Origin: Candidatus Fermentibacterota bacterium
GTDB lineage: Bacteria > Fermentibacterota > Fermentibacteria > Fermentibacterales > JCC-6
Assembly (NCBI GenBank): GCA_030609965.1
Contig: JAUWSQ010000002.1
Span: forward strand, 65,395 to 129,394
Direction of reading: 5' to 3'
DNA length: 64,000 nt
The notes beneath the pieces are model-generated. The model saw only the letters and a list, made by a program, of their open reading frames with translations, ran no database searches and was not told the DNA's origin. The position numbers were made by a program, and so were the translations under genes. Below are positions 2,668 through 64,000 of this stretch, in pieces (position 1 is the first letter of the stretch; the number at the start of each line of letters is the position of its first letter).

Positions 2668-4065
2668 ATGAACAGATCGCTTTCTGTAATGATCGTTGAT
2701 GATGAGAAGCCTATGCTGGAATGGCTTTCCATACTTCTGGAAGAGCATGGTTACGAAGTCTCCTGCTTTTCAACTGGAGAACAGGCTGTAGAAGCCGGCT
2801 TGAAATCCATACCGGATATACTTGTTGCTGATGTAAAAATGCCGGGAATAAGCGGTTTCGATGTTCTGACGCAGCTCCGGGAGAATTCTCCCGGTCTTAT
2901 CGGCATAATAATGACAGCCTTTTCAAGTGTGGACTCGGCAGTTAAGGCTATGCGAAAAGGAGCAACGGACTATCTTGTTAAACCCTTTGAAGTCGATCAG
3001 CTTCTGATCGCGATAGAGAAAGCCCTCTCCGAAAGGGATCTTAAAAGGGAGAACCTGGAACTCAGGAAAAGAGTCCGGTCAAAATACTCTATCGAGGAGA
3101 TTATAGGAAAATCCAGACCCATTGTTGAACTGCTTGAAAAAGTAAGGATAGTCGCGGACAAGAACAGCACAATAATTATCACTGGTGAAAGCGGTACAGG
3201 CAAGGAACTCATCGCAAGGGCTATTCACAGCATTGGTTCCAGATCTGACAAGCCCTTCTTCGGTGTCAGTTGCGGAAGTTTTTCCCGCAGTCTTCTCGAA
3301 AGTGAACTCTTCGGTCATCTTAAAGGATCCTTCACAGGCGCGTACAAGGACAAGGAAGGCCTCCTTGTAGCAGCAAGAGGAGGTACCTTCTTTCTGGATG
3401 AAATAGGCGAGCTTGACAGGGAGCTTCAGGTTAAACTGCTCAGAGCACTTCAGGAGCGTCAGGTACTTCCTGTCGGCGGAACCAGAAATGTCCCATTCGA
3501 TGCCAGGATCATAGCTGCGACCAATGCCGATCTTGCTGAAATGGTAAAGACCGATGATTTCAGAGCGGACCTCTATTACAGGCTGAACGTTATTCCTCTC
3601 CATGTTCCCGCCCTCCGGGAAAGAAGATCCGATATTCCCTTTCTTCTGGATAAATTCCTTCAGGACTATTCCGGAGAAACAGGCGATCAACTGAAAACGA
3701 TTACACCTGAAGCAAGAGTAATATTGTCGGATTACAGCTGGCCTGGAAATGTACGTGAGCTTGAGAACGTGGTTGAACGTCTTTGTGTGATGACACTTGG
3801 TGAGGAAATTGCAGTTGATGACATACCGGATTTCATCAGGTACCCAGGTGAAGCGGAACATGTGTCTGCTGGTTCCGGGATCATAACTGAACAGTCTTCC
3901 AGGAAGAACCCCACTCTGGATGAGATAGATAAAGCTTACACACTGTACGTGCTTGAACACCAGGCAAGAGGACAGAAACGCCTTGCTGCCAAGATCCTTG
4001 GTATTAACGAAAGTACCCTTTACAGAAAGCTGGAAAAATACGCGAGGGAAATGGATGATTCATGA
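2668..4065 (+). CDS. pilR: Sigma-54-dependent response regulator, PilR/NtrC family
   Basis: REC domain, AAA+ sigma-54 interaction domain (GESGTGKE, GSFTGA variant of GAFTGA, FLDEIGEL) and C-terminal Fis-type HTH (LGINESTLYRKLEKY). Start moved from the ORF-track 2635 to ATG 2668 (MNRSLSVMIVDD), right after the pilS stop. Confidence 0.9.
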   Translation: MNRSLSVMIVDDEKPMLEWLSILLEEHGYEVSCFSTGEQAVEAGLKSIPDILVADVKMPGISGFDVLTQLRENSPGLIGIIMTAFSSVDSAVKAMRKGATDYLVKPFEVDQLLIAIEKALSERDLKRENLELRKRVRSKYSIEEIIGKSRPIVELLEKVRIVADKNSTIIITGESGTGKELIARAIHSIGSRSDKPFFGVSCGSFSRSLLESELFGHLKGSFTGAYKDKEGLLVAARGGTFFLDEIGELDRELQVKLLRALQERQVLPVGGTRNVPFDARIIAATNADLAEMVKTDDFRADLYYRLNVIPLHVPALRERRSDIPFLLDKFLQDYSGETGDQLKTITPEARVILSDYSWPGNVRELENVVERLCVMTLGEEIAVDDIPDFIRYPGEAEHVSAGSGIITEQSSRKNPTLDEIDKAYTLYVLEHQARGQKRLAAKILGINESTLYRKLEKYAREMDDS

Positions 4066-62268: not shown

Positions 62269-62484
62269 ACTTATCCAATCCGGTCTTTAAGTTTCTTTCA
62301 AACAGATATTTTATGAATCTGTCAGGCTGATAATGATCAATGCACTCCAGGGTTAAAAGAAATGAACGGCATTTACAGTAAGCAACAACTAATATACATT
62401 ATACATCACTGATTTCAATATATCATTTGAAATGTACTGTTCAGGAAACGTCAGATAGAACTAACTGCGATGTCGGAGAAAACT

Positions 62485-62883
62485 ATGAAAATACCAGGAA
62501 TATTGCTTTTTGCCGCTGTTCTTATTTCCTCAGCCTGCCTGAGTAACTCGAACTCGGACAACTCTAACATGGAATCTATCGTAGTTCTGGAAACCATTGA
62601 ATCTCCCGGTACGAACATTACCGGGCTTGCATGGGGAGAGGGGGATCTATGGGCAGTGGACGCGGAAAACGATACGATCTTCCGAATAAATACTACCAGT
62701 GGAGAAATCATCGGTTCTTTCAAATGCGGCACTCCTTCATCATTCTCTGCAACCGGGCTTGCATTCAGTGAAGAGCACAATCGGATTTTTCTGGGGCTCT
62801 GGAATCACTCAAACAATGGGTACATCTATTCCTATTCCCCCTCCGGCTCGTACCTTGGGTCGGTGAGTATGTGCGGGGGTTGA
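62485..62883 (+). CDS. Lipoprotein, N-terminal two blades of a beta-propeller; ends at an in-frame TGA
   Basis: Lipobox LISSACL. Blade-like repeats ITGLAWGEGDLWAVD..., ATGLAFSEE.... Same reading frame as 62902-63249. Confidence 0.6.
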   Translation: MKIPGILLFAAVLISSACLSNSNSDNSNMESIVVLETIESPGTNITGLAWGEGDLWAVDAENDTIFRINTTSGEIIGSFKCGTPSSFSATGLAFSEEHNRIFLGLWNHSNNGYIYSYSPSGSYLGSVSMCGG

Positions 62884-63249
62884 GGTAACCCTGTCTCGTC
62901 GGTGACGGGACTGGCAGCACATATGGATTATCTCTATGTCTCTTCAAGATCCCAGAACAGAACCTATCGTTATTCACTTCCGGGTATATCCGGCCGAACG
63001 AGCAGCACTCCATTTGGAGGAAACAGCAGAACCTGGGATATCGCTCGTGATTCCACAGGACGCATCTGGGTAGCATCAGACGATTCCGGGATTCCCGTTC
63101 GCTGTTGTGATTCATCCGGAAATACAGTACAAGAGATAAGTAACAGCATCATTTCATCCGCTACAGGCATGACAATTGATGATGACGGTCACCTCTGGGT
63201 AAGCAACAATGATGACATGACACTGTACCATATTGATGTAACGGAATAA
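62884..63249 (+). CDS. Continuation (three blades) of the same beta-propeller after the in-frame TGA; the ORF track starts it at GTG 62902
   Basis: Blades VTGLAAHMDYLYVSS, TWDIARDSTGRIWVASD, ATGMTIDDDGHLWVSNN. (62902-62470) is divisible by 3, and no other stop lies between. Confidence 0.5.
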   Translation, partial: GNPVSSVTGLAAHMDYLYVSSRSQNRTYRYSLPGISGRTSSTPFGGNSRTWDIARDSTGRIWVASDDSGIPVRCCDSSGNTVQEISNSIISSATGMTIDDDGHLWVSNNDDMTLYHIDVTE

Positions 63250-63311: not shown

Positions 63312-64000
63312 ATGCGTGATTGCATCTATGGAATTAATAGAAAAGTACCCCTTCTTGATGGAACGATGGTTCGTTATGTCAATCTGGATAATGCAGCCAG
63401 TACGCCGCCCCTGAAAAATGTTGTAGACGGGATCAATGCGCTGGCGCCGTATTATTCCAGCGTTCACAGGGGAACCGGTTTCAAATCAAGATTGTGTACT
63501 GAAGCATACGACAGGGCTCATACTGTAATAGCAGAGTTCGTCGGGGCTGATCTCAGCATTAATACGGTTATTTTCGTGAAGAACGCCACCGAAGCCATCA
63601 ACAAACTCGCTCACCGGCTTAAGGCCCCGAAGGATCACGTTGTTATAACCACTCGAATGGAACATCATTCAAATGATCTTCCTTGGAGGTACAACCACAG
63701 AACTGTCTATGTGCGGGCAACTTCAGACGGCCGGTTCGATGAGGAGCATTTCGATTCACTTCTGCATGAATACAAAGGGAAAATAGCCCTTGTTTCAGTA
63801 ACGGGTGCCTCCAACGTTACAGGATATATTCAGCAGATACATCAAATTGCCGAGAAAGTTCATGCAGTCGGCTCAAGAATCATGATAGATGCCGCCCAGC
63901 TTGCCCCGCACAGAAAAATAGATATGAGACCGGATGACGACCCGGGCCATCTTGATTTCATTGCAATAGCAGGGCATAAGATGTACGCTCCATACGGAAC
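63312..64000 (+). CDS. Class-V aminotransferase (cysteine desulfurase / selenocysteine lyase-like), 3' end off the right edge
   Basis: Own translation from ATG 63312: MRDCIYGINRKVPLLDGTMVRYVNLDNAASTPPL...YYSSVHRGTGF...VIFVKNATEAIN...EHHSNDLPW...AGHKMYAPYG (PLP-Lys region). Not in the ORF track because it has no stop in the window. Confidence 0.75.
   Translation, partial: MRDCIYGINRKVPLLDGTMVRYVNLDNAASTPPLKNVVDGINALAPYYSSVHRGTGFKSRLCTEAYDRAHTVIAEFVGADLSINTVIFVKNATEAINKLAHRLKAPKDHVVITTRMEHHSNDLPWRYNHRTVYVRATSDGRFDEEHFDSLLHEYKGKIALVSVTGASNVTGYIQQIHQIAEKVHAVGSRIMIDAAQLAPHRKIDMRPDDDPGHLDFIAIAGHKMYAPYG

Follow-up and report, generated by a model that had tools for sequence, protein, structure and literature searches.

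The bacterial selenoproteins known so far are, in their great majority, redox enzymes of the cytoplasm that have cysteine (Cys)-form relatives. Here, we describe a candidate of a different kind, found in a 64,000-nucleotide (nt) stretch of a Candidatus Fermentibacterota genome (GenBank assembly GCA_030609965.1, contig JAUWSQ010000002.1, positions 65,395 to 129,394), hereafter the window. Comparative evidence indicates that window positions 62485–63249 are very probably a single intact gene in which the in-frame UGA at 62881–62883 is decoded as selenocysteine (Sec; U in sequence motifs). Like bacterial genes that harbor a Sec insertion sequence (SECIS) within the open reading frame (ORF), of which E. 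coli fdhF is the prototype, the locus has an in-frame UGA followed, within the ORF, by a stem-loop whose first loop positions hold G, in a genome that encodes selA, selB, selC, and selD. It differs from these systems in that the protein lies outside every catalogued oxidoreductase selenoprotein family, is predicted to be exported rather than cytoplasmic, and has no Cys counterpart in the searches described below.

Mammalian thioredoxin reductase harbors a C-terminal Gly-Cys-Sec-Gly selenenylsulfide redox center, a sequence identical to the x-C-U-G motif of half the family described here. In the present family, in contrast, the motif is internal, within a loop that joins two blades of a predicted exported protein, with no flavin/NADPH domain and no evident electron donor. 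Vicinal Cys–Sec dyads are also found in the CU-motif selenoproteins SaoL, SaoB, SaoC, and HgcA, where the dyad is proposed to bind soft metals (Haft, bioRxiv 10.1101/2022.07.06.499078). These proteins resemble the present family in the vicinal Cys–Sec, in database truncation at CU, and in that some are extracytoplasmic (substrate-binding lipoprotein context). Their folds (MerB-like, ABC substrate-binding protein, and corrinoid protein) are unrelated to the propeller, they include CC forms, of which none was found in the propeller family, and the copy in the window has the spacing C-G-G-U rather than CU.

In blade sequence, the protein matches NHL propellers (PF01436; the PknD sensor domain, Brat, TRIM2, and the designed “Pizza” proteins), from which it differs by a model of five blades rather than six and by the Sec/Cys loop insertion; the literature searched reports no Sec in any known NHL protein. 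In fold and size, it resembles the glutaminyl cyclases 3mbr, 3nol, 3nok, and 2iwa (template-modeling (TM) score of 0.67–0.73 and rmsd of 3.1–3.5 Å over ≈240 columns), with an identity of 14–15% and with no Cys/Sec loop in the cyclases.

Conservation of the in-frame TGA and its hairpin

An earlier note, made from the letters of the window and a list of its ORFs, had described two ORFs in one frame, 62470–62883 and 62902–63249, split by TGA 62881–62883 alone in an SVSMCGG-TGA context. Both observations were confirmed on the sequence. The two ORFs encode 137 and 115 amino acids (aa), respectively, their frame is identical, and no other stop separates them. Read through, the frame gives the local peptide ...SVSMC(135)GG-U(138)-GNPVSSVTGLAA and, from ATG 62470, a product of 259 residues. 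ATG 62485 is probably the true start, given a GGAG upstream and orthologues that begin at MKILG; orthologue starts align to the MKI(L/P)G position, i.e., ATG 62485.

The source genome is a 2.62-Mb metagenome-assembled genome (MAG) of 81 contigs that is 80.7% complete, with the window on contig C38. All four sel genes whose presence the earlier note had made a check of the Sec reading are found in it. The tRNA-Sec (selC) scores 75 bits and is called SeC(tca) by ARAGORN, selA scores 515 bits, selB (324 bits) lies directly 3′ of selA, and selD (318 bits) is itself interrupted in frame by a TGA at the canonical GPCAG-U-AGK site. Across the phylum, 67 of 70 genomes encode selA, as do 46/46 of the high-quality ones. 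TGA is not globally reassigned, as the earlier note had argued: among the 43 window frames of ≥250 codons, it is the commonest terminator (22 TGA, 16 TAA, and 5 TAG), including that at 4063–4065, and several members of the propeller family themselves terminate at TGA. The selD gene (G000:C52:25484-26407, + strand), which thus also encodes a selenoprotein, has a SECIS hairpin, CCCGaCCA-GGC-UGGcCGGG, with the loop at +26 to +28, and its frame runs ≈60 codons 5′ of the usual SelD start through a Cys-rich segment (CPSDCKRRGNCSECIAFHH...).

A protein search of 5.8 billion clustered proteins returned propeller-family matches as fragments only: three proteins of 148–150 aa that end exactly at ...MCGG and three of 204–205 aa that start exactly at MTGLAA. 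The contigs behind these fragments carry the same in-frame TGA in an invariant SMCGG-U-GNPVSSVTGLAA, even at ≈50% overall identity. Homologues in which the two halves are separate genes with signals of their own were not encountered; the only halves are gene-caller fragments cut at the TGA. When 70 genomes of the phylum were searched in six frames, every one yielded homologues, with 1–9 per genome, and among the matches listed in full (>150), each contains exactly one internal TGA.

We retrieved 40 distant paralogues (28–43% identity) and 80 further loci. The latter were drawn from MAGs of Ca. Aegiribacteria, Sabulitectum, Fermentibacter daniensis, and Hyd24-12 with the pattern [TS][LIF]DAPDT[NG]I, which reached Fermentibacterota only and thus says nothing on other phyla. 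Among 120 distinct gene copies, TGA occupies the same column in 119, such that homologues carry a TGA, not an unrelated residue, opposite the TGA at 62881–62883. The surrounding motif is CGGU[G/D] in 59 of the TGA-bearing copies and x-x-C-U-G in the other 60; a Cys is found at −3 or −1 of the TGA in all 119, and none lacks it. A 36-sequence alignment has C135, U138, and G139 invariant, and the remaining invariant positions are the repeated blade pattern LWAVD, DIA, IWVA, and LWVS. Invariant columns and purifying selection flank the TGA on either side. The genome of the window itself encodes a paralogue on another contig (G000:C14:50832-51701, − strand; TGA at C14:51365) with the motif DSTC-U-GSALYQSVTG and a type IX secretion system (T9SS) sorting domain; the loop of its hairpin, ACCAGUC-GGU-GACUGGU, is placed at +24. 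It also encodes relatives with neither Sec nor Cys (C71:4143-4829, C66:33202-34200, and C25:19032-19967).

A hairpin of −12.5 kcal/mol (RNAfold) follows the TGA at 62893–62911. The earlier note had anticipated such a SECIS-like element and had drawn it as CCC(T)GTC/GACGGG with an 8-nt loop. The hairpin exists; the register proposed for it can be drawn but is not the conserved, covarying one. The bacterial SECIS (bSECIS) consensus (Zhang and Gladyshev model, summarized in PMC13188914) consists of a loop of 3–9 nt, with G in its first two positions, a stem of 4–16 bp, and a UGA–loop distance of 16–37 nt. The window hairpin agrees with this consensus in all four respects (GGU loop, 8 bp, and 17-nt spacing), and that of the host selD is of similar style, with a GGC triloop at +26. 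An Rfam scan of 62700–63100 at E-values up to 10 returned no SECIS family and one chance snoRNA match.

In homologues of ≈50% identity, the 26 nt 3′ of TGA-GGN are invariant, including all synonymous sites, while flanking codons vary; the rare stem changes in close homologues (C to U, A to G, and C to U) retain wobble pairs. Distant paralogues encode differing peptides here (PWAKG, PLVTG, HSVSG, and DREVTG) and keep the hairpin via compensatory changes, as in GUCCUGUC-GGU-GACAGGGC, AUCCACUC-GGU-GAGUGGAU, AUCCCGUU-GGU-AACGGGAU, CCCUUG-GGC-CAAGGG, and GACCGG-GAGGUAA-CCGGUC. Counting from the first base of the UGA, 117 of the 119 copies have a GG[U/C] at +21 or +24 (spacing of 17 or 20 nt). We compared 26 distinct hairpins with 500 shuffles and with controls in which the partner strand was slid. 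Paired cells amount to 94.7%, a fraction biased slightly upward because the register (+21 or +24) was chosen by best pairing, versus 68.8% in shuffles (0/500 as high), and pairing with a slid partner falls to 35–55%. Double-sided changes are found in six of the eight stem pairs, and the covariation score is 0.667 versus 0.193 in shuffles (0/500), with 0.035–0.153 in the slid controls.

Readings of the in-frame TGA

The presence of the sel genes, the conserved TGA column, and the covarying SECIS favor Sec over the nonsense mutation or error that the earlier note had set against it. The UGA would be decoded by the SelA, SelB, tRNA-Sec, and SelD of the host, with the in-frame SECIS at 62893–62911 as the signal.

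Nearly all known selenoproteins have a Cys-form counterpart (PMC13188914). We found no Cys-for-Sec homologue of the propeller in the 5.8 billion clustered proteins, in the top 150 matches of a hidden Markov model (HMM) search of 1.84 billion proteins, or in the 120 loci. A word-indexed search with the family profile gave no full-length homologues, as all 40 of its 40 matches are C-terminal fragments. The top matches of the exhaustive HMM search are mostly giant multi-propeller repeat proteins, which are uninformative, and single-domain matches were used instead. The only full-length ones among these, P0025 and P0027, have a loop with neither Cys nor Sec. The check suggested in the earlier note, whether Cys or Sec occupies this column, thus gave TGA and no Cys.

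Several points weigh against decoding as Sec. The support for selenium in the protein is comparative, not experimental. No homologue has Cys at the Sec column, the usual support for a new selenoprotein, and the full-length relatives that lack Sec (P0025, P0027, and the C71, C66, and C25 copies of the same genome) hold neither residue. The choice of register by best pairing slightly inflates the paired fraction, and the hairpin lies inside sequence that codes for a conserved peptide, such that its nucleotide conservation is partly shared with protein constraint. The missing Cys form removes one customary support, for which the conservation and SECIS evidence compensate.

The alternative that fares best, which we nonetheless consider improbable, is that the UGA is read through without Sec, a near-cognate tRNA inserting Trp, Cys, or Arg with stimulation by the hairpin, or through other recoding. 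A stable hairpin right after a stop can indeed stimulate readthrough, and both the unsuccessful search for a Cys-for-Sec homologue and the comparative nature of the selenium evidence are compatible with this explanation. It leaves unaccounted for, however, a complete Sec machinery that is universal in the phylum and the SelB-type features of the hairpin, with GG[U/C] in the apical loop, a constant spacing of 17 or 20 nt, and a selD SECIS that is alike. Redox or ligand motifs with Sec typically have a neighboring Cys such as the invariant one seen here, and an ordinary residue at this position would predict a sense codon in some of the 119 copies.

Slightly lower still do we place the chance that the UGA is a genuine stop, which would yield a 137-aa secreted N-terminal fragment and perhaps a separate C-terminal protein from GTG 62902, in an arrangement conserved for regulation. 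Gene callers annotate exactly these two ORFs, a GTG or ATG is found 18 nt past the TGA in the CGGU subfamily, and a degree of termination at the UGA is to be expected when selenium is scarce. The halves, however, cannot close a propeller, and the whole is modeled confidently as one domain. The six codons from the TGA to the GTG are conserved in frame, no start codon recurs at a constant distance past the TGA in the CU-type paralogues, and GTG 62902 falls within the SECIS loop and stem. Moreover, the C-terminal half has no signal peptide, yet the T9SS domain that it carries in paralogues requires export. Since the signal peptide is found only in the N-terminal half, 5′ of the UGA, and the sorting domain only in the C-terminal half, 3′ of it, the two halves of the T9SS paralogues must belong to one chain.

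A fresh pseudogene, or a sequencing or assembly error at the TGA, would fit a lone stop in an otherwise open frame of a MAG (80.7% complete, 81 contigs), but 119 of 120 distinct copies, drawn from 70 independent genomes and from many metagenomes, share this TGA, and purifying selection is seen on either side of it, which excludes an error or a recent mutation for practical purposes.

Predicted fold, export, and role of the propeller family

Decoding as Sec would yield an exported protein of ≈230 residues predicted to fold as a five-bladed NHL-type β-propeller; the features of the locus are collected in Table 1. A single-sequence AlphaFold model was poor (predicted local distance difference test (pLDDT) score of 66), and we used instead an AlphaFold2 (AF2) model built from the 36-sequence alignment, with a pLDDT of 88.3 and a predicted TM score of 0.83. 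This model has 20 strands arranged in five four-stranded blades (approximately residues 50–85, 93–133, 145–181, 188–223, and 231–256), with the N-terminal strand 38–44 closing blade 5. The Cys/Sec motif forms an 11-residue connection between the outermost strand of blade 2 (128–133) and the innermost strand of blade 3 (145–151). The earlier note had counted blade-like repeats, two before the TGA and three after, and had held that neither half would close alone; the model agrees on both counts, with the TGA in the loop between blades 2 and 3 and the whole modeled as one domain.

Table 1. Features of the candidate selenoprotein locus (window positions)
Feature	Position	Strand	Details
Candidate selenoprotein coding sequence	62485..63249	+	One frame with a single internal TGA; terminated by TAA 63247–63249; 254 codons from ATG 62485, 259 from the alternative ATG 62470
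Putative Shine–Dalgarno-like motif GGAG	62475..62478	+	6 nt 5′ of ATG 62485; read from sequence
Predicted signal peptide with lipobox-like end MKIPGILLFAAVLISSA-C	62485..62538	+	Cys codon 62536–62538, followed by an SNSNSDNSN linker
Predicted five-bladed β-propeller, NHL-type repeats	62581..63237	+	AF2 model, Foldseek, and profile matches
Cys135 codon TGC	62872..62874	+	Column invariant in the 36-sequence alignment; candidate Sec partner
UGA, very probably read as Sec	62881..62883	+	U138 (U133 counting from ATG 62485)
Predicted bacterial SECIS hairpin GUCUCGUC-GGU-GACGGGAC	62893..62911	+	8-bp stem; GGU triloop 62901–62903; UGA–loop distance 17 nt

Pfam matches are weak but above cut-off (DUF6923, 29.2 bits versus 27; Reg_prop, 27.2 versus 20.4; and NHL, 24.9 versus 20). 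The family profile matches Pizza, PknD, Brat, and TRIM2 chains among Protein Data Bank (PDB) sequences with E-values of 1e-27 to 1e-8, the lowest value for an NHL structure being 4e-27. Ranked by E-value, Foldseek places six-bladed NHL domains first, and the NHL clan (PF01436) is defined by six blades where the model has five. The best Foldseek superpositions are with the five-bladed glutaminyl cyclases, led by 3mbr (TM score of 0.73 and rmsd of 3.1 Å) and followed by 3nol, 3nok, and 2iwa. Membership in the glutaminyl cyclase family (PF05096, Glu_cyclase_2) was considered and rejected: the protein reaches 14.4 bits where the cut-off is 22.3, with residues 24–89 falling out of register on profile positions 144–209. 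Glutaminyl cyclases are also absent among the profile-versus-PDB sequence matches.

The copy in the window is a putative lipoprotein. Its predicted signal peptide end ..VLISSA-C compares with the lipobox [LVI][ASTVI][GAS]-C, fitting at −1 and +1 and having Ser at −3; orthologues preserve the [A/G]-C, after which comes a polar linker. The protein lacks a T9SS sorting domain (PF18962/TIGR04183) and ends directly after blade 5. Many paralogues have such a domain (TIGR04183 at 34.7 bits in P0008, PF18962 in others, and the C14 copy of the same genome). In other subfamilies, an ordinary signal peptide is accompanied by a T9SS sorting domain or, alternatively, by a short TWGxIKxxF tail. Approximately one quarter of the family has, in place of a T9SS domain, such a tail at its end, ..(A/S)TWG(x)IK(A/S)xF, ≈15 residues past the last blade (L060, L064, L066, L067, L068, L073-L075, L079, L086, L093, and L094; P0025 and P0027). 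The TWG tail may be an unrecognized C-terminal sorting or anchoring signal. The family is multi-copy and Fermentibacterota-wide, with members that are of the CGGU-G or vicinal C-U-G type and are predicted to be lipoproteins, T9SS cargo, or TWGxIKxxF-tailed.

Fermentibacterota are common in anaerobic digesters and sulfidic waters. In β-propellers, the D-to-A loops lie on the face that usually bears binding or active sites, and by this general topology, the Cys/Sec loop would lie on that face. Cys and Sec appear to be gained or lost together, which suggests that they function as a pair. We infer that this Cys–Sec pair is an extracytoplasmic redox or soft-ligand-binding site: present or absent jointly, the two residues would operate either as a redox-active selenenylsulfide or as a bidentate soft-ligand site for a metal or sulfane sulfur, located on one propeller face, in an extracytoplasmic compartment of an anaerobe that inhabits sulfidic environments.

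While the recoding mechanism appears canonical, the protein family appears to be new and undescribed. There is no model for it in Pfam or NCBIfam, and the NCBI name for one fragment is only “T9SS type A sorting domain-containing protein.” Full-text literature searches found no bacterial β-propeller, T9SS, or Fermentibacteria selenoprotein family, and no such family is mentioned in a 2026 review of the prokaryotic selenoproteome, the deep-Sep paper, or the Haft preprint on CU motifs. Hundreds of Fermentibacterota genes are currently recorded as paired truncated fragments, labeled hypothetical or “T9SS sorting domain,” and each pair would be merged into one selenoprotein gene. An exported, multi-copy propeller family, apparently without a Cys form, bears on why Sec is retained over Cys, and selenoprotein finders that rely on Cys/Sec pairs are by design blind to families of this kind. 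If these findings are confirmed, the uncultured fermenters would have a substantial cell-surface selenium requirement.

Other exported candidates and the gene neighborhood

A genome-wide scan for a TGA within an open frame followed by a hairpin returned 83 candidates, mostly in non-coding frames, of which four looked real. One of these (G000:C73:21866-23086, + strand; TGA at C73:22163) encodes an FG-GAP propeller (PF13517, E-value of 2.9e-20) that carries both a signal peptide and a T9SS sorting domain. Its TGA lies in the context ..ITMGYG-U-CTGS.. and is followed by the hairpin UCCACA-GGU-UGUGGA at +27; among the 31 genomes in the taxonomic family, 29 contain full-length homologues that keep one TGA (≈75 in all), and a single genome has as many as 11 matches. 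A further, unrelated candidate (G000:C68:22075-22776, − strand; TGA at C68:22527) is a 339-codon frame with a signal peptide, a weak T9SS sorting-domain match, the context ..MMMGMYTC-U-GDDNIIAP.., and the hairpin UCGCUCC-GGC-GGAGCGG at +27. Other genomes contain 13 homologues of it, of which 12 retain one TGA; the thirteenth is a short partial match without a stop.

We tentatively suggest, at somewhat less than even confidence, that Fermentibacterota run an obligately selenium-dependent exported “surface selenoproteome” of at least three unrelated lipoprotein or T9SS-cargo families, i.e., the CGGU/CUG propeller, the FG-GAP propeller (G-U-C), and a third fold (TCUG), each with an invariant Cys beside a conserved UGA, in which a shared Cys–Sec dyad would perform an extracellular chemistry as yet undescribed for selenoproteins. 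Together, these families could amount to twelve or more copies in one genome. The chemistry might, for example, serve to capture or activate polysulfide or elemental sulfur or to scavenge chalcophile trace metals in sulfidic water. If this proposal is correct, the family described here would be the first β-propeller selenoprotein family.

Upstream of the candidate selenoprotein gene is an M3 oligoendopeptidase. The downstream gene starts at 63312 on the same strand, runs to ≈64700 on C38, and encodes a 462-aa class-V pyridoxal phosphate enzyme. The earlier note had pointed to a class-V aminotransferase 60 nt downstream as circumstantial; the distance from the stop is 62 nt, and the enzyme is a SufS/CsdA-like cysteine desulfurase whose bearing on the selenoprotein gene stays circumstantial. 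It is closest to the SufS family (TIGR01979, 273.6 bits against a cut-off of 475) and falls under every equivalog threshold, including that of the selenocysteine lyase SclA. A functional link was set aside on the grounds that synteny is confined to close orthologues; the neighbors are common to these only, and paralogues sit elsewhere. No terminator-like site was found between the selenoprotein gene and the SufS-like gene, and promoter-like matches are weak. At the orthologous locus L022, an AhpC/thioredoxin-fold gene follows the desulfurase.

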